IMG/VR virus record: IMGVR_UViG_2744054675_000008
Span: 1 to 10,577 of that record
Length of the DNA: 10,577 nucleotides
Reading direction: 5' to 3' (one strand)
Source: a virus
Taxonomy: Duplodnaviria; Heunggongvirae; Uroviricota; Caudoviricetes
Shown here: piece after piece, positions 1-5,180 of the stretch
Numbering within the stretch: position 1 is the first letter of the stretch
Layout: each line of letters begins with the position of its first letter
Translations under genes and position numbers: made by a program
Notes under the pieces: generated by a model
Told to the model about the DNA's origin: nothing
Databases searched by the model: none
The model's input: the letters and a program-made list of their open reading frames with translations, nothing else

Positions 1-195
1 TTAATAGTTCTGCTGATTTTCTTCCATCTCTGCTTCTGCTGCCAGTGATTCAATTTTATCTGCGAATATTGCTGACAGTGTTGCAAATTCAGCATCAGTG
101 ACAGCGGGAATTGGAACAAACCTGATCCCGCTGTGTGCAAGCATGTTTGCAGTTTCAAGGCATTTCCTTAAATCTGCTGGTGATGCCCTGTTCAT
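1..195 (-). CDS. Hypothetical small phage protein (64 aa), last gene of the leftward operon in this window
   Basis: Complete ORF (ATG at 195-193, TAA at 3-1). Its ATG overlaps the TGA of the upstream methyltransferase gene (ATGA overlap), suggesting translational coupling. No family recognised. Confidence 0.45.
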   Translation of the reverse strand: MNRASPADLRKCLETANMLAHSGIRFVPIPAVTDAEFATLSAIFADKIESLAAEAEMEENQQNY

Positions 196-842
196 GCTGC
201 ACGCTCCCGTCCCTGGTTGTCTGTTGGTGACAGCGGAGAATTGCTGAATGCATTTGTTAATCCGCCAATATCCAACGCGTATCCGGGGTGTAGTTGCACT
301 GCCGGGTCTTCACACTGATTACCCCAAACATCGAAGCCATGAGACGTCTGGCGGGCGAACAGTTCAATGCGAGAAACATCGCCTAACAATTGCACAAGTT
401 TTTCACGAACGATATCTGGTTTTCTTGAATGCTCAAGCCGCGGTGCGGTAAATGACTGAACGATCCCTGCATTAATGCGCGTAGGTAGTTTTCCCTTTAC
501 CGCAAACAGGCAATCTTCACTATTGGCGCGAGTCATGTGTCCCATACCCATAACCAGTTTATCTGGTTGTCGACTACCACATTTTATCCACGTGAAGCCA
601 TTCATGGTCATCAGACGGAATCCCCAGGCTTCAACAACTTTTAGTGCTTCGAGTGGTTGTGTTGGCACCCACCACATGGCCAACAGACAGTTTTCAGCGG
701 TCAAATCCCACACAGGAAGGCGGCAGATATCCAGCACACTCATAACTGGATATTTAAAACAGGCACCGCGATTACCATCTGCGGCTTTGTCCCGGTATAC
801 CCAGGGTGGATCTGCATAGATTAGTGTGTATTTCTTAGTCAT
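192..842 (-). CDS. MT-A70 family DNA N6-adenine methyltransferase (orphan, phage Dam-like)
   Basis: N-terminal MTKKYTLIYADPPWVY contains the DPPW catalytic motif near the N-terminus, as in MT-A70-type phage adenine methyltransferases; EHSRKP segment later. ATG at 842-840 overlaps the upstream ORF stop (ATGACTAA). The ORF track begins at an in-frame GTG at 854; ATG at 842 preferred. No restriction endonuclease partner in the window. Confidence 0.8.
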   Translation of the reverse strand: MTKKYTLIYADPPWVYRDKAADGNRGACFKYPVMSVLDICRLPVWDLTAENCLLAMWWVPTQPLEALKVVEAWGFRLMTMNGFTWIKCGSRQPDKLVMGMGHMTRANSEDCLFAVKGKLPTRINAGIVQSFTAPRLEHSRKPDIVREKLVQLLGDVSRIELFARQTSHGFDVWGNQCEDPAVQLHPGYALDIGGLTNAFSNSPLSPTDNQGRERAA

Positions 843-1134
843 AAACCACCCCACAACATCCTATGCCGCTATAGTCGCCACGGCGAAGGCCGTTACCTTT
901 TGTGATACATTGGTCCCTGCGAACCGCGATCCTTGCACGTTCAACATCACCAGAAGCAACATCCATACACTGAAGCCAAAGGTGAGCGGCAATGCGGAAT
1001 TGCCCTTTTTTCTCTCTTTCAATCGCGCGTTTTTCGATCTCTATCGCCGCAGGAGTAACGGCGACAATCTTTGACGGACTGCGCATTGAAACCTTATTCA
1101 TGTGATATTTTTCAAGTCGGCTTAACTTTCTCAC
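835..1134 (-). CDS. Hypothetical phage protein (83-99 aa depending on start)
   Basis: ORF whose stop overlaps the methyltransferase start. Start uncertain: GTG at 1134 preceded by GAGAGGG, or ATG at 1086 preceded by AAGG. No family recognised. Confidence 0.4.
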   Translation of the reverse strand: MRKLSRLEKYHMNKVSMRSPSKIVAVTPAAIEIEKRAIEREKKGQFRIAAHLWLQCMDVASGDVERARIAVRRDQCITKGNGLRRGDYSGIGCCGVVYD

Positions 1135-1243
1135 TTAATCCAACCCTCTCTGAAAATTAATGCCAGCAGATAAAGCCATGCTGAAACAGAGGCCAGGAAT
1201 AAGTACCAGCCTGACCATTTGCTCCAGTGCCTTAGCAGCGCAC

Positions 1244-1492
1244 TCATGCAGCGTTGCTCACAGGACGATATACACGTTGCTGAACAGGAGGTTTTTTACC
1301 CTGGAACTCTGCCGGGCTTGCTGCCTGACGTTCATCAAGCCAACGCTCAACTTCATCACGGTTCCATGCGCAGCGTTTGTCAGTGATATACCAGCGTTTA
1401 GGAAATTCCCCTGCGCGCTCCATACGGTCGATAGTGCTCCATGACAGTGGCACCACCGCCAGGAGTTCCTTCTTACCTAATGCACCTTTCAT
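1244..1492 (-). CDS. AlpA/Xis-family helix-turn-helix DNA-binding protein (phage transcriptional regulator or excisionase-like)
   Basis: 82 aa; segment LLAVVPLSWSTIDRMERAGEFPKRWYITDKRCAWNRDEVERWLDER matches the AlpA/excisionase-type winged-HTH pattern (S-x-S/T-I-x-R, FPKP-like, W-x-x-x-E-V-x-x-W). Shine-Dalgarno AGAGAGG upstream of the ATG. Confidence 0.65.
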   Translation of the reverse strand: MKGALGKKELLAVVPLSWSTIDRMERAGEFPKRWYITDKRCAWNRDEVERWLDERQAASPAEFQGKKPPVQQRVYRPVSNAA

Positions 1493-1514
1493 AAATACCT
1501 CTCTTGGTTGCAGT

Positions 1515-1533
1515 GCGGCGCGCGTGGCGCCGC
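1515..1533. other. GC-rich perfect hairpin (7-bp stem GCGGCGC / GCGCCGC, 5-nt loop) between the annealing-protein gene and the AlpA-like gene; no U-tract on either strand
   Basis: Inverted repeat read directly: GCGGCGC gcgtg GCGCCGC at 1515-1533. Confidence 0.5.
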
Positions 1534-1541
1534 GGTGGTGG

Positions 1542-2423
1542 TTACATAGATGTTTCGTTTAATTCTTCCCGACGAACGCTGTAAACGTCGGTGGCTTTTG
1601 CCAGCAGTTCTTCATCATCTGAAAGTTTTTGTGCAATGTATTTGTAAGCCTTATCCAGTTCGGAGACAGTGCTGTAATTCATCGCTGCGCTGGTAAAGGC
1701 CATCAGCATTTCTTCTGGATCACGGCTATCCGCTTTACGCGTTTGCTCATCAGGCTTTTTCGCTGGTTTAGCGTTGATCAGACTGTTCATTCCCGCAGCA
1801 GTGGTCGTTTGCGGAGTAATGTCTCGCTCAACGCGCGGTGCCGTTTCCTGTAATTCGTCAGGGGTGTAAACACCGAGAAGTACATCAGGAGCGTGCAGGC
1901 GAGCCCATCGTTTCGTGCAAAGATAGGCAAGCTGCTGGCGCGGATCCTGTTCCCACAATGGAGAGTTACGCACTCCGGCTTGCGCCATACTGATGGTAAG
2001 CTCACGGGGTTCTGCTTCTCCTTTAAGAACTGCTGACACAGTTACCGTCAGATTCGGTGATTTATCTGTTTTGCCGTTAACATTCGACCAGTCACCGCTC
2101 CAGCGATAATTCAGGCGTGTCGCTAGCAGGCTGGAAGAGGATACGACCGCGTTTACCAACTGTGCTTCGTAGCCTAACGTTCCGTTTACCACATGCGTTT
2201 TCTGCGCCACGGCGAAAGGATTCATTCCCCACTGTGCCGCCTGCATGGTCACCGCCAGACAATCGGCAGGTTTGCCTTCAAGATGTTTCGGTACAGTCGC
2301 TTTGCTTTGTGACATCAACTCCGCGAAACGCACCAGTTGATTCATGCCCTCCGGGCTGAAGATTGCCGCAGCAGTACCTACAGTTGCGCCTGGTTGTGAT
2401 GTGATTGCGATATCATTGCTCAT
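1542..2423 (-). CDS. Phage single-strand annealing protein, Red-beta (Bet) family recombinase
   Basis: 293 aa. C-terminal region matches lambda Bet as I recall it (…ARL…Y…DE…ERDITP motif) and an N-terminal segment resembles the Bet core. ATGA overlap with the upstream exonuclease gene, AGGA Shine-Dalgarno. Family assignment from memory, not from a search. Confidence 0.7.
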   Translation of the reverse strand: MSNDIAITSQPGATVGTAAAIFSPEGMNQLVRFAELMSQSKATVPKHLEGKPADCLAVTMQAAQWGMNPFAVAQKTHVVNGTLGYEAQLVNAVVSSSSLLATRLNYRWSGDWSNVNGKTDKSPNLTVTVSAVLKGEAEPRELTISMAQAGVRNSPLWEQDPRQQLAYLCTKRWARLHAPDVLLGVYTPDELQETAPRVERDITPQTTTAAGMNSLINAKPAKKPDEQTRKADSRDPEEMLMAFTSAAMNYSTVSELDKAYKYIAQKLSDDEELLAKATDVYSVRREELNETSM

Positions 2424-3241
2424 ACGTACATATCCTGTTTACGTGCCCAGTCAGGGCGTTTAATAATTTCCACTCCGCCCCACTCATCGTTGATGCGGCA
2501 TTCGTGATAGGTATTCAGATCCCGGCGGAACAGAGCGTGCCCGGCATCGACATCCGGCGCATCCAGCTCGAACACGCGTACCGGATACCGACCACAATCA
2601 ATGCTTTCGCTCACGGCAAGAAAGAAAAAACCATGCGGCTGACCAGTAACCTTCATTGCGCCTTCGCGGTACATTGCGTCCTGCACGTGGTAGCGGAATT
2701 CCTCGATGTGGCGTGCAAAACGGTCCATATCTGCAACCTTTTTCACGTCGACGATCACGTTGTGCTCGTTCAGCCATTTGTCTGGACGAATGCGGCACAA
2801 CTCACCAGTCTCTTCATCGTTCCAGTACATTGATGCTTCGCAGTAACCAGGTGCTTCCAGCATCCAGCGTGCAGCCGGGTGAGCCATTGCGCTATCACGC
2901 ATCAGCTCCAGTTTTCGCCACTGCTCGACATCAAGTACCGTAATACCCATATCCGCCACATCACGAAGAAATGCTTCTTCGTCAGCTTTACCTTGTTTTG
3001 TCCGACGATCGAATTTCGGTGAAACAATGAAGCGTTTGTCGAACTCTCCAGGCTCCAGAAGCAGACAGTGCAATGCGGTTCCCATATCCAGTGCAGACTT
3101 TTTCTCTTCGTCTTCTGGTGCTGCCTGAACCCATTTAAGAAGCGCCGGATTCTTGGCAACCATGTCCAGTTGCGACTTACTCACGCCGTCACCGGCGTGG
3201 TAGTCTTCGTTGCTGATGTCGAAATAAATTCCCGGTTTCAT
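2420..3241 (-). CDS. RecB-family PD-(D/E)XK exonuclease (RecE C-terminal-domain-like phage exonuclease)
   Basis: 273 aa. Motifs in order: RPD (Asp), IVDVKKV (D-x-K) and QDAMY (QxxxY) characteristic of RecB-like nucleases. Sits immediately upstream of and overlaps the annealing-protein gene, the classic exo/annealase pair. GAGGGA Shine-Dalgarno. Confidence 0.7.
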   Translation of the reverse strand: MKPGIYFDISNEDYHAGDGVSKSQLDMVAKNPALLKWVQAAPEDEEKKSALDMGTALHCLLLEPGEFDKRFIVSPKFDRRTKQGKADEEAFLRDVADMGITVLDVEQWRKLELMRDSAMAHPAARWMLEAPGYCEASMYWNDEETGELCRIRPDKWLNEHNVIVDVKKVADMDRFARHIEEFRYHVQDAMYREGAMKVTGQPHGFFFLAVSESIDCGRYPVRVFELDAPDVDAGHALFRRDLNTYHECRINDEWGGVEIIKRPDWARKQDMYV

Positions 3242-3537
3242 GCCGCGTCCCTCTGTCCATCAAGCTGATCCGCCAGATCCCAGCGGGCGATAATTGCCAT
3301 TGCCTCTCGCCGATAGGCATCCATCAGTTCTTCGAACTCAGGGCTGTCTTTAGCAGCCTCCAGTACTTCCTGACGAACGCCTTTGCCTGTTACAACGTCG
3401 AAAGTTGAGGACAGTTGATGAAGTCGGATGCTCTCAATCAGTTCAACTTGTCGGTCATATAGCTGTTCTGACAGGCGGTAGTCCTTGTCGAATGCCAGCA
3501 TGATTTTTTGAAGATTTTTCTGCTGATTAACGTTCAT
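3238..3537 (-). CDS. Hypothetical phage protein (99 aa from the ATG at 3537), upstream of the exonuclease gene
   Basis: In-frame ATGs at 3552 and 3537; the one at 3537 is preceded by GGGAGGG at ideal spacing. Stop overlaps the exonuclease start (ATGA). No family recognised; position is where Gam/Kil-type accessory genes sit in lambdoid phages. Confidence 0.5.
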   Translation of the reverse strand: MNVNQQKNLQKIMLAFDKDYRLSEQLYDRQVELIESIRLHQLSSTFDVVTGKGVRQEVLEAAKDSPEFEELMDAYRREAMAIIARWDLADQLDGQRDAA

Positions 3538-3539
3538 TA

Positions 3540-3692
3540 TCAGCCCTCCCATATCTCGTTATCGTTGGCCACATCGCGAGCTTCTTTGCTGACGAAAGCC
3601 CACTTAATGCCTTCCTGTAAGGTGCGGAACTTCCAGCTCATGAATCCGCATGCAGTAACGCAGTACCAACCGTTGATGATTTTCCACTGCAT
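3540..3692 (-). CDS. Small ORF (50 aa, MQWKIINGWYCVTACGFMSWKFRTLQEGIKWAFVSKEARDVANDNEIWEG), first gene downstream of the predicted PL; not in the supplied ORF track
   Basis: ATG at 3692-3690 preceded by GAGGT with 8-nt spacing; stop TGA at 3542-3540 overlaps the start region of the next gene. Translation verified codon by codon. Trp/Cys rich, not Arg rich. Confidence 0.5.
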   Translation of the reverse strand: MQWKIINGWYCVTACGFMSWKFRTLQEGIKWAFVSKEARDVANDNEIWEG

Positions 3693-3710
3693 AACTTGTT
3701 ACCTCGGTCT

Positions 3711-3727
3711 GTTACCGTTTAGGTAAT
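3711..3727. promoter_or_regulatory. Operator site OL-a (GTTACC gttta GGTAAT), overlapping -10/+1 of predicted PL
   Basis: 17-bp inverted repeat of the RTTACC-N5-GGTAAY family, seen 7 times in three intergenic clusters. Confidence 0.6.
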
Positions 3728-3754
3728 AATTATGCGTATTTGGTTTGATGTCAA
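3726..3754 (-). promoter_or_regulatory. Predicted leftward early promoter (PL-like): -35 TTGACA, 17-bp spacer, -10 AATTAT
   Basis: Consensus -35 hexamer read on minus strand (plus 3754-3749) and a -10 with the conserved A and T positions (plus 3731-3726); flanked by two operators. Confidence 0.5.
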
Positions 3755-3772
3755 TAGATATGAGTTAAAAAA

Positions 3773-3789
3773 ATTACCCATTAGGTAAT
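3773..3789. promoter_or_regulatory. Operator site OL-b (ATTACC catta GGTAAT), perfect palindrome upstream of the PL -35
   Basis: Perfect 6-bp inverted arms with 5-bp spacer; centre is 62 bp from the OL-a centre. Confidence 0.6.
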
Positions 3790-3795
3790 AGTATA

Positions 3796-3826
3796 GGCAA
3801 TAAAAAAGCCGCCAGAAGGCGGCTTA
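3796..3826 (-). terminator. Rho-independent terminator of the repressor gene
   Basis: On the minus strand: stem AAGCCGCC / GGCGGCUU with UUCU loop followed by UUUUUUAUU; the repressor stop codon lies in the stem. Confidence 0.7.
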
Positions 3827-4429
3827 CTTACTGAAAAGTATTATTTTATTGTTTGTTTTTTCGTTCTGGTTGATGACAAATTCACTGTAACTTTCGATCT
3901 TTGCTTTCTCGGTTTCAGGTAACAATGCGTAGCGCGAGCGGTCATAGTTGATAGTTGCAGGGTCGTGCGGGTGAATCAGTAGTTCATATCCGTGACGCCC
4001 GAATGCAGATGCAACATTCTCCAGGGTGGAAATGGAAACGCTGACCTCATTGTTTAACAGGCGGCTGATTGTCACCTGGGCGACGCCGGATGCGCGGTGA
4101 AGTTTTCCCTGTGTTGAAAGGTCGCGGCTTTCGCTCATCCAGCGTTCCAGGTTGTGAGCCGCCAGCTGACCAATGTCGCTTGGGCCGACAGGCTGAAAAC
4201 CTTCCTGAGAAAGCGAGCGATCGATATCAAGCCAGTTACGGGGTTTATTGGCGGCAGCTTCAATTTTTCGCGCAACCTGGTCGCCGATAACCTTCTTGCC
4301 AAGAGCCCAGCGGTTTACCAGATTTGCCTGAGTTCCAAGTTTTTCAGCCATCCGCGTCTGAACACCATTGAATTCACGGTCGATCAAGTCGTTGAGATTT
4401 TGCCTGCGGACGTCCTGGATACTTTTCAT
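3824..4429 (-). CDS. Prophage repressor (CI-functional analogue) with two HTH_XRE-like domains and no LexA-like peptidase domain
   Basis: 201 aa. N-terminal segment GVQTRMAEKLGTQANLVNRWALGKKVIGDQVARKIE and C-terminal segment ASGVAQVTISRLLNNEVSVSISTLENVASAFG both fit the XRE-type HTH pattern. No GDSM-type Ser/Lys autocleavage motifs. Divergent from the Cro-like gene, flanked by operator clusters and followed by a terminator. No obvious Shine-Dalgarno. Confidence 0.7.
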   Translation of the reverse strand: MKSIQDVRRQNLNDLIDREFNGVQTRMAEKLGTQANLVNRWALGKKVIGDQVARKIEAAANKPRNWLDIDRSLSQEGFQPVGPSDIGQLAAHNLERWMSESRDLSTQGKLHRASGVAQVTISRLLNNEVSVSISTLENVASAFGRHGYELLIHPHDPATINYDRSRYALLPETEKAKIESYSEFVINQNEKTNNKIILFSK

Positions 4430-4483
4430 TTTCTGGAAAATCGCCTCATATATGAATCAGTAGATGATTCAATTTAAAGCAAT

Positions 4484-4500
4484 ATTACCCAATAGGTAAA
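4484..4500. promoter_or_regulatory. Operator site OR-1 (ATTACC caata GGTAAA)
   Basis: Member of the 17-bp inverted-repeat family in the repressor/Cro intergenic region. Confidence 0.55.
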
Positions 4501-4517
4501 TGCACCCCATAGGTAAC
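4501..4517. promoter_or_regulatory. Operator site OR-2, degenerate (tgcACC ccata GGTAAC), abutting OR-1
   Basis: One perfect half-site (GGTAAC) and a partial one; centre 17 bp from the OR-1 centre. Confidence 0.4.
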
Positions 4518-4522
4518 TATCC

Positions 4523-4558
4523 TTGATTTTTGTTACCTTATGGGTGAATATTTATTAT
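4523..4558 (+). promoter_or_regulatory. Predicted rightward early promoter (PR-like) for the Cro-like gene; exact hexamers ambiguous
   Basis: Candidates: -35 TTGTTA (4530-4535) with -10 TATTAT (4553-4558) at 17-bp spacing, or -35 TTGATT (4523-4528) with -10 GAATAT. Both overlap operator OR-3. Confidence 0.45.
4532..4548. promoter_or_regulatory. Operator site OR-3 (GTTACC ttatg GGTGAA), overlapping PR
   Basis: Perfect left half-site, partial right half-site; mirror image of OR-2. Confidence 0.5.
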
Positions 4559-4583
4559 CTGAAATAAATATCAGGCAATAGCT

Positions 4584-4814
4584 ATGAGCGATAACGGACA
4601 TTTCGATTTCAAAAAGCACTGGCTTGCACTTACTCCGGATGAGCGTGAAGCCTTCGCACAGGAAGCCGGAACGACGAGTCATTATATCCAGACTCACTTA
4701 ACAGGTAAGCGCAAAATGCCAGGTAAAGTATTGATGAATGGGCTTTTTAAAGCCTGTAAAACAAGACAATGGCTGCGCTCAAAAGCAGAACTGGCATACT
4801 TCTTCTACTCATGA
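4584..4814 (+). CDS. Cro-like small HTH regulator (76 aa), divergent from the repressor gene
   Basis: Position (first gene of the rightward operon) and a central HTH-like segment FAQEAGTTSHYIQTHLTGKRKMPGKVL. Family not identified beyond Cro/YdaS-like resemblance. Confidence 0.55.
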   Translation: MSDNGHFDFKKHWLALTPDEREAFAQEAGTTSHYIQTHLTGKRKMPGKVLMNGLFKACKTRQWLRSKAELAYFFYS

Positions 4815-4836
4815 TATCCAGCTACAACCCTCTGTA

Positions 4837-4860
4837 GACCGCCACCCGGCGGTCTTTTCA
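4837..4860 (+). terminator. Rho-independent terminator just downstream of the Cro-like gene (tR1-like position)
   Basis: Stem GACCGCC / GGCGGTC (7 bp, perfect) with ACCC loop followed by TTTTCATAT; preceded by a second small stem-loop CTACA accctc TGTAG (4822-4837). Confidence 0.7.
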
Positions 4861-4963
4861 TATCTATTCGTACCTCAAAGGTAATAAAAAACCAAATGTG
4901 GTTGATCTTTTTTTTGTGTCAGCACAAAATGACCGTAATCCCAATACCAATAACAGGGCTTAC

Positions 4964-5165
4964 CATGGAAATCATTACACGTATTGATGCCGCAAAGCGC
5001 GGACTTAAACGCTACTACACCGGAAAAACATGTAAGCACGGACATGACAGTGAACGCTGGGTTTACAACGGACACTGTGTTGAGTGCACCATGGAATCAA
5101 ACCGTCGTATCAGGGCAGAGATTAAGCAGATCATGATTAATTCCTCCCCACAACATTCAAGCTGA
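4964..5165 (+). CDS. Small zinc-ribbon-like protein (66 aa) at the cII position; function unknown
   Basis: ATG at 4964 preceded by AGGG at 6-nt spacing (the ORF track's longer 4896 start lacks a Shine-Dalgarno). Sequence TGKTCKHGHDSERWVYNGHCVECT carries C-x2-H-x-H and H-C-x2-C, suggestive of metal binding. Confidence 0.5.
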
Positions 5166-5180
5166 TAGCGGAGATTAATC

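Follow-up and report, generated by a model that had tools for sequence, protein, structure and literature searches.

A terminator hairpin and a candidate replication promoter behind the cro-like gene of a phiV10-type prophage

Gene layout of the early region

The window, by which we mean the whole stretch of 10,577 nucleotides that was analysed, carries the genes and signals listed in Table 1. The leftward operon contains two small ORFs and the genes for a RecE-like nuclease, RecT, an AlpA-like protein, a PerC-like protein and a methylase. To the right of the Cro-like gene lie a zinc-ribbon gene, the genes of an O-like initiator and a lambda P-family protein, a DUF1064 gene and more rightward genes. 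When megablast was run against phage records, phiV10 and several sibling phages were about 98% identical to positions 3400–5400 over the full length, and the gene order of the window is that of phiV10 p32–p48. On sequence, the window is assigned as the early region of a phiV10/epsilon15-type prophage, genus Uetakevirus (the epsilon15 group). Its immunity module was found in 541 of 5,426 complete E. coli genomes.

The prophage repressor is a full-length homologue of Rep from Salmonella phage SPC32H. Rep of SPC32H is a tetramer, and its tetramerization domain forms loops (PMC9986798). The epsilon15 repressor is reported to be 42% homologous to the phiV10-type repressor, and repressor loss in the genus via an antirepressor was shown for ZX5 by overexpression (PMC9782041). 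The Cro-like protein gave no match in Pfam or PDB, and its gene most likely stands alone in the PR transcription unit. At the head of the leftward operon, the 50-aa and 104-aa products matched only PHROGs 898 and 856, both of unknown function.

Table 1. Genes and regulatory features of the early region, in window coordinates.
Feature	Position	Strand	Remarks
First leftward ORF, 50 aa	3540–3692		Leftward operon; 5 Trp and 2 Cys
PL region (predicted)	3712–3788	−	Perfect operators 3712–3726 and 3774–3788, flanking TTGACA (3754–3749) and AATTAT (3731–3726)
Repressor-gene terminator (predicted)	3806–3825	−	z = −4.98; also in the phiV10 annotation; mirrors the cro terminator
Prophage repressor, 201 aa	3824–4429	−	PDB 5d50, E = 3.9e-41; Pfam HTH_3
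OR/PR region (predicted)	4485–4558	.	Operators 4485–4499, 4502–4516 and 4533–4547; PR candidate TTGTTA-17-TATTAT (4530–4558)
Cro-like gene, 76 aa	4584–4814	+	PHROG 35 'transcriptional repressor', E = 5.6e-13; 100% identical to phiV10 p41
Spacer, cro stop to hairpin	4815–4835	+	C-rich and G-poor (8 C, 2 G); holds a weak, non-conserved stem-loop at 4822–4837
Putative intrinsic terminator of the cro unit	4836–4865	+	Stem 4836–4843/4848–4855, loop ACCC, tail TTTCATATCT
Upstream imperfect operator (predicted)	4870–4884	.	GTACCTCAAAGGTAA; one mismatch to TTACC-N5-GGTAA; right half GGTAA invariant
−35 hexamer of proposed Prep, TTGATC	4902–4907	+	GGTTGAT (4900–4906) invariant in 15 lineages
−10 hexamer of proposed Prep, CAAAAT	4925–4930	+	AAAAT (4926–4930) invariant in 15 lineages; spacer 17 bp
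Degenerate downstream operator (predicted)	4930–4944	.	TGACCGTAATCCCAA; four mismatches; left half a perfect TTACC in 9 of 15 lineages
Zinc-ribbon gene, 66 aa	4965–5165	+	PHROG 1081 (no assigned function); equals phiV10 p42; first gene of the replication unit
Replication genes (O-like initiator and lambda P-family protein)	5181–6778	+	Domain matches
O-like initiator	5181–5996	+	HTH_36 and DnaT domains; internal iteron-like repeats
Lambda P-family protein	5978–6778	+	
Terminator and promoter junction after gene P (predicted)	6784–6892	+	Short hairpin and T7 (6784–6803), then P3
P3 with its two operators, ahead of the DUF1064 gene (predicted)	6816–6892	+	Perfect operators 6816–6830 and 6878–6892; TTGATT (6850–6855), TTTAAT (6873–6878)

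The hairpin downstream of the cro-like gene

The hairpin has the sequence AGACCGCC-ACCC-GGCGGTCT followed by TTTC (4836–4859), with six G-C pairs in its 8-bp stem, and begins 21 nt past the TGA of the Cro-like gene. Folded in isolation, it gave −15.0 kcal/mol compared with −5.1 ± 2.1 for shuffled sequences (z = −4.74), and none of 200 shuffles equalled it. The terminator scan picked up here the defining elements of an intrinsic terminator, a GC-rich stem-loop and directly behind it a T-tract, located past a stop codon and on the sense strand. The same element, in the same position, is already labelled 'putative rho-independent terminator' in phiV10 (DQ126339.2 / NC_007804.2, 33078–33100, between p41 and p42); one loop base differs (ATCC in phiV10, ACCC in the window) within a region of about 98% identity. 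The hairpin is real and already known as a putative terminator from the phiV10 annotation, and it would be expected to end transcription in vivo.

The initial annotation had described a strong terminator directly after the Cro-like gene, at the position that tR1 occupies in lambda. The hairpin does lie there, directly after cro and ahead of the replication genes, but calling it strong goes too far. We ranked the terminators with a hairpin-energy/T-tract discriminant in the manner of d'Aubenton-Carafa 1990, combined with modern energies, in which only the ranking is meaningful: the cro terminator scored about +17, well below the repressor-gene terminator (3806–3825, +45) and the one at 9922–9941 (+39). 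Because the T run behind the hairpin is only four uninterrupted bases long (4855–4858), the terminator is moderate, and its efficiency is probably partial. A second stem-loop at 4822–4837 had been described as well. Its arms exist (CTACA at 4822–4826, TGTAG at 4833–4837), but with only 4–5 bp and no conservation it was not retained as a feature: part of it coincides with the terminator stem, phiV10 and many E. coli variants carry CCACA, which breaks the pairing, and other genera lack the structure. Also rejected was a minus-strand promoter-like site at 4838–4811 (TCTACA-16-TATCAT), whose frequency is that expected by chance and which Tyrion and other relatives do not conserve.

The region after cro was compared in the GenBank phages Tyrion, BUCT554, epsilon15, SPC32H, two Klebsiella phages and ZX5, in prophages from eight further species and in 80 IMG/VR contigs. 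A GC hairpin was found 18–28 nt after the stop codon of the cro-like gene in 16 of 16 lineages, drawn from E. coli, Enterobacter, Erwinia, Pseudocitrobacter, Buttiauxella, Scandinavium, Kluyvera, Salmonella, Citrobacter and Klebsiella. The loops differ freely in sequence and measure 3–7 nt (ACCC, ATCC, TTCT, GCCT, TCAT, TCATT, CACTGT, TCCCC, ACCCCAA and others). Substitutions in the stem preserve pairing, with A-T, G.T or G-C at one pair and a change from G-C to A-T in Scandinavium. The stems were tabulated directly, MAFFT having misaligned the arms around loops of unequal length, which made the RNAalifold pair counts unusable.

The T-tract is less constant than the hairpin. A run of T follows the hairpin in the elements of E. 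coli, Enterobacter, Erwinia, Pseudocitrobacter, Buttiauxella and Scandinavium; in Pseudocitrobacter a C breaks it right after the stem, and the hairpin/T-tract score there is slightly negative (−7.6). TCCTTCC or TCCTGCC stands in place of the T-tract in Salmonella, Citrobacter and Klebsiella, with strongly negative scores, and Kluyvera has TCTGCATTTC in that place, also with a negative score. The post-cro hairpin of epsilon15 and SPC32H has no T-tract, and neither phage carries a terminator annotation there.

The hairpin is kept even where no canonical intrinsic terminator is possible, so termination may not be its sole or original role.

Like lambda tR1, whose hairpin is flanked by C-rich tracts in the arrangement rutA-boxB-rutB, the element of the window lies in C-rich surroundings. 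The unpaired parts (spacer, loop and tail) are rich in C and poor in G in each of the 16 lineages, with 247 C and 40 G in total, although the sequences diverge, and the 60-nt segment starting at 4815 ranks 19th of 10,518 plus-strand segments of the window for C minus G (top 0.2%). This composition, together with the retention of the hairpin where the T-tract is absent, raises the alternative that the hairpin belongs to a Rho-utilisation-like region, chiefly as part of a Rho-dependent terminator or as a stabiliser of the mRNA 3' end, and that the T-tract was added later in the E. coli/Enterobacter branch. We consider this distinctly unlikely. The C-rich stretch is short against typical rut sites (about 20 nt before the hairpin and 10–15 nt after it), composition alone does not prove Rho dependence, and the hairpin with TTTT in the window fits an intrinsic terminator. 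Moreover, such a role would alter how the PR transcript ends and not how the replication genes are expressed.

Search for antitermination features

In lambda, tR1 depends on Rho, and N that has been loaded at boxA/boxB overrides it. The element of the window differs: its hairpin is of intrinsic type, with a T-tract and a loop that varies, boxA and an N-like protein were not found, and a conserved candidate promoter follows downstream. Neither the Arg-rich early protein nor the boxA with a conserved-loop boxB of the lambda N/nut system was present in the window. No protein of the window matched the N or Q antiterminator families in Pfam or PHROG, nor did phiV10 p55, p54 and p24, which lie outside the window. 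At least five Arg in any 12 residues were not present in any window protein, and the first product from PL has two Arg in 50 aa. This agrees with the initial annotation, which had noted that the first leftward ORF encodes a 50-aa Trp/Cys-rich protein and not an Arg-rich N-like one. It had also reported no evident nut-like boxA/boxB pair, and boxA was indeed matched at chance level in the window (7 matches, 7.9 expected), never near PL or PR. Unlike a protein-binding boxB, the single hairpin after cro differs among relatives in both the sequence and the length of its loop.

HK022 put is a two-stem-loop RNA of about 65–70 nt that is encoded upstream of terminators, and HK022 likewise has a terminator system in the lambdoid position that works without N. 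An HK022-style RNA mechanism had been one of three ways out offered by the initial annotation, beside readthrough of the terminator and a promoter downstream of it. It found no support in the window, which has neither room nor a stable structure for put. The PR and PL leaders measure about 20–30 nt, and the gap from the cro stop to the hairpin is 21 nt long. The promoter-proximal transcripts did not outdo shuffled sequences in folding (z = +0.11 for the PR transcript, 4565–4835, and z = −0.38 for the PL transcript). An Rfam search of the whole window with E up to 10 returned sub-threshold chance matches only, mostly generic terminator look-alikes at the repressor terminator; this null result bears on put only as far as Rfam contains a put model. 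No recognisable N, Q, nut or put feature was thus found.

Terminator-like sites were found neither in the leftward operon (1–3700, minus strand) nor in the stretch 6896–9590 (plus strand), so nothing else in these two stretches calls for antitermination. The only terminators that would need passage are that of cro and the weaker one after gene P (6784–6803), which is also annotated in phiV10.

Another kind of antitermination would make transcription from PR terminator-resistant by a put-like RNA acting in cis or by an unrecognised protein, with the 50-aa or 104-aa leftward product, the Cro-like protein or the PerC/AlpA-like regulators as candidates. Several small early proteins have no known function, and antiterminators are diverse and often undetectable by sequence. 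We nevertheless regard this mechanism as extremely improbable: besides the missing family match, Arg-rich motif and boxA and the Rfam result with its reservation on put, the hairpin loop varies between close relatives, the leaders and the 21-nt gap are short, the proximal transcripts show no unusual structure, and the operons contain no further terminators that would call for it. The 50-aa and 104-aa proteins (PHROGs 898 and 856) may still conceivably act as regulators.

Operators and the candidate promoter Prep

The 15-bp palindrome TTACC-N5-GGTAA occurs at 12 sites in the window with up to two mismatches, compared with 2.75 expected. Apart from the sites in Table 1, two-mismatch matches without a promoter assignment begin at 3189, 4694, 7661 and 9599. 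The complete phiV10 genome has 14 sites with up to one mismatch, compared with 0.64 expected. Nearly all of these are intergenic and precede transcription units, among them those of the terminase, head, tail-fibre, lysis and integrase regions; the sites at 87–101 and 105–119 are within the annotated 5' end of the small terminase gene, just upstream of the start of its epsilon15 homologue. The RefSeq record of epsilon15 carries seven 'protein_bind: repressor' features with the same sequence, spread across the genome. SPC32H and epsilon15 have a homologous repressor and the same operator core, with repressor sites scattered over the genome. As all lineages share the core TTACC-N5-GGTAA, there is no repressor/operator co-variation to compare.

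In every lineage, PL, P3 and the proposed promoter ahead of the replication genes (Prep) have a common layout: an operator, 17–20 nt, a −35 hexamer of TTGAC or TTGAT type, 16–17 nt and a −10 hexamer, the last T of which is the first base of a second operator. The starts of the two operators are 62 bp apart at PL and at P3, after the replication genes, in all lineages including SPC32H and epsilon15 (63 bp at PL in Klebsiella), and 59–60 bp apart at Prep. A separation of about six helical turns between paired sites would fit a tetrameric, loop-forming repressor. The immunity region is nearly mirror-symmetric: on one side the repressor gene is followed by its terminator and then by PL with an operator pair, and on the other the cro-like gene is followed by its own terminator and by Prep with a weaker operator pair. 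Both immunity genes would then be one-gene units closed by terminators, with outward promoters bracketed by operators just beyond, and the same kind of junction recurs after gene P.

The arrangement appears to be that of one repressor with operators at many separately transcribed units, and not a cascade of lambda type. P1 C1 has many dispersed operators, and mycobacteriophage L5 gp71 has 'stoperators', which act on elongation inside transcription units. The likeness to both lies in one repressor whose many sites are scattered over the genome, at or close to transcription-unit starts, in place of the lambda-type antitermination cascade. The sites of the window are 15-bp palindromes, usually paired around a promoter, whereas those of P1 and L5 are asymmetric. 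This is an ordinary multi-operon, multi-operator design that would not surprise a phage specialist, and the value of the analysis is mainly in the annotation and regulatory logic of a very common prophage, in a group that includes phiV10, epsilon15 and SPC32H.

The hexamers TTGATC-17-CAAAAT (4902–4930) had been pointed out in the initial annotation as a weak promoter candidate, with an operator-like site at 4869–4885. Both are present as described, the operator-like site spanning 4870–4884 with one mismatch, and the cores of the hexamers are invariant in 15 lineages. The intergenic alignment (A2) of these lineages has a mean column identity of 62% and only three invariant blocks longer than one base, namely the operator half GGTAA (4880–4884) and the blocks at the −35 and the −10 (Table 1). 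Compared with the consensus, Prep matches at 4/6 and 4/6 positions, which is under the cut-off of the promoter scan (9/12); its spacer falls within the 16–18 bp of sigma-70 promoters, and its −10 has the A expected as second base and the T expected as sixth. For TTGAT-N17-19-AAAAT the window has a single match, compared with 0.12 expected. Nothing else in the region is as well conserved as candidate Prep, which is found alongside hairpins that can terminate as well as those that cannot. Since Prep is kept in every lineage while the T-tract is lost in some, the promoter would be the constant route to the replication genes. Of the three ways out, a downstream promoter is thus the one that the invariant hexamers back.

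The upstream operator of Prep starts 14 nt after the terminator, and its left half is degenerate in every lineage. The downstream operator (4930–4944) shares its first base with the end of the −10, the register that PL and P3 also show. In both, the promoter-proximal half is kept (GGTAA upstream, TTACC downstream in 9 of 15 lineages) and the outer half is degenerate everywhere. Because both operators are imperfect in every lineage, control of Prep by the repressor is the least secure part of our proposal. No annotation of Prep with its half-strength operators was found: the phiV10 record has no promoter or operator beside the terminator, and the imperfect sites are likewise unannotated in epsilon15 and SPC32H. 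There is no LexA box near the region. Control by Dam through the GATC in the −35 was rejected, several E. coli variants and an Erwinia prophage having TTGATA.

We propose that PR-cro is a monocistronic unit bounded by the terminator and that transcription of the replication genes probably comes from their own repressor-controlled promoter, without any N-type factor. PR would give a short cro transcript that ends at the hairpin (4836–4855). The zinc-ribbon, O-like and P genes would be read from the sigma-70 promoter Prep, with no antitermination from PR; a transcript start near position 4937 is expected, which makes Prep a concrete testable prediction. In the lysogen, a tetrameric SPC32H-type repressor would bind these sites and shut Prep, PL, PR and P3. 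Once the repressor is inactivated, all units would fire in parallel, and an N-type factor would therefore not be needed. The terminator would serve as insulation, which separates the level of cro from that of the replication genes and keeps PR traffic off the downstream operators and promoter. The initial annotation had seen a puzzle in a terminator at the tR1 position without N. The terminator is present and N and nut are absent, as it stated, but the implied paradox dissolves because the phage does not appear to be a lambda-type cascade, its transcription units each carrying repressor operators.

Some readthrough from PR is likely, because the T-tract is short, and it could contribute to expression of the replication genes or, in some relatives, dominate it. 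It can coexist with the promoter and is less likely as the sole route. In its full form, this alternative holds that the terminator is leaky, that passive readthrough from PR supplies the replication proteins and that the TTGAT...AAAAT block serves another purpose. The T run of four bases followed by an interruption and the score clearly below that of the repressor-gene terminator speak for it, as do the hairpins of Salmonella, Citrobacter and Klebsiella, through which PR transcripts probably run in the absence of a T-tract; in lambda, too, some expression of O and P takes place without N. However, a leaky terminator leaves unexplained why the −35 and −10 are invariant islands at 16–17 bp, why operator-like sites stand in the register of PL and P3, and why each replication module has its own well-placed −10. 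We therefore rate it as unlikely.

A further reading starts from the genus-wide conservation of the hairpin, its C-rich, G-poor flanks and its retention where the T-tract is absent. It places a regulated terminator at the tR1 position with the hairpin as its core, dependent on Rho or assisted by a roadblock of repressor bound 14 nt downstream, and an unrecognised phage factor, such as one of the conserved small early proteins, would tune readthrough. This is very improbable in our judgement; if true, it would be a form of antitermination or attenuation unrelated to N, Q or put, alongside an internal promoter.

A mosaic junction falls inside the proposed promoter Prep. Among loci in IMG/VR and GenBank that encode an identical Cro protein, there are two alternative replication modules, the alternative one being of ZX5 type, and homology between the loci ends exactly after TTGATC, at 4907. 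Each replication module supplies its own CAAAAT at the right distance. The −35 and the upstream operator go with the immunity module and the −10 with the replication module, and such a junction is as expected if recombination joins modules at a conserved functional promoter.

Operator palindromes and the immunity cassette

The repressor palindrome TTACC-N5-GGTAA (15 bp) is strongly enriched in the window, where 12 sites with up to two mismatches were observed against 2.75 expected; the whole phiV10 genome has 14 sites with at most one mismatch against 0.64 expected. In the usual case a promoter is flanked by a pair of operators spaced exactly 62 bp apart. The TTACC-N5-GGTAA core is common to all lineages examined, even though the ZX5 paper (PMC9782041) reports only 42% homology between the repressors of the epsilon15 and phiV10 types. 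Candidate determinants of immunity specificity, if there are any, are the central N5 and the flanks.

As shown in the table, similar GCCGCC...GGCGGC hairpin terminators end both the repressor gene and the Cro-like gene. Past each of them, at a distance of 14-17 nt, lies an operator and then a promoter facing outward, so that the immunity cassette is nearly mirror-symmetric. The same junction occurs again after the replication gene P, with ~13 nt between terminator and operator.

Unpaired bases around the hairpin that follows the Cro-like gene, summed over 4815-4870 and the equivalents in the relatives L002-L018, comprise 247 C and 40 G. Every lineage is C-rich and G-poor in the unpaired parts there, although the sequence itself is divergent. 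This rut-like composition recalls the rutA-boxB-rutB arrangement of lambda tR1.

The elements stand in a different order upstream of the Bro-N antirepressor gene of phiV10 (20394-20511). Along the minus strand, small gene p24 comes first, then the perfect operator at 20497-20511; the terminator annotated at 20394-20415 lies between this operator and the antirepressor, an order which suggests that the antirepressor forms a separately controlled, terminator-gated unit.

Features located in the window
Feature	Position	Strand	Remark
Operator palindromes	3712-3726, 3774-3788, 4870-4884, 6816-6830, 6878-6892
Operator cluster	4485-4547
Terminator, repressor gene	3806-3825		GCCGCC...GGCGGC
Terminator, Cro-like gene	4836-4855		GCCGCC...GGCGGC
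Junction after gene P	6784-6830		terminator, operator
Mosaic junction	4907		end of TTGATC
Inverted repeat	4912-4929		TTTTGTG-TCAG-CACAAAA
Tandem arrays (three), O-like gene (5181-5996)	5478-5617		18 bp x 3.1; 24 bp x 2.6 (100% identity); 12 bp x 2.4
Terminator-like hairpins (four)	9694, 9726, 9922, 10345	+	bracket two small genes

The proposed replication promoter

The proposed promoter ahead of the replication genes (TTGATC, CAAAAT) spans a mosaic junction, homology being lost exactly past its -35 hexamer in ZX5, as well as in some 20 members of the IMG/VR set L019-L098. Among loci with an identical Cro protein, one or other of two unrelated replication modules is present, with a correctly spaced CAAAAT of its own in either case. 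A perfect 7-bp inverted repeat spans the spacer and -10 of the promoter. Its conservation does not extend outside the E. coli type; the repeat might serve as a binding site, or the T run might match the A-rich -10 by chance.

Repeats in the O-like gene and the right end

Three adjoining tandem-repeat arrays within the O-like gene code for the repeated peptide NGN.../PKNGMLND. They are probably origin iterons embedded in the coding sequence of the initiator, an arrangement known from lambda O.

The right end of the window (9560-10577) is unlike phiV10. It shares 96-97% identity with lambdoid Stx-converting phages, at their DUF551/hypothetical/AlpA-xis/integrase end, and over its full length it matches Escherichia phage E212. 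The prophage is thus mosaic, combining the early region of a Uetakevirus with an integration module of lambdoid type. Four terminator-like hairpins are found in this right end.
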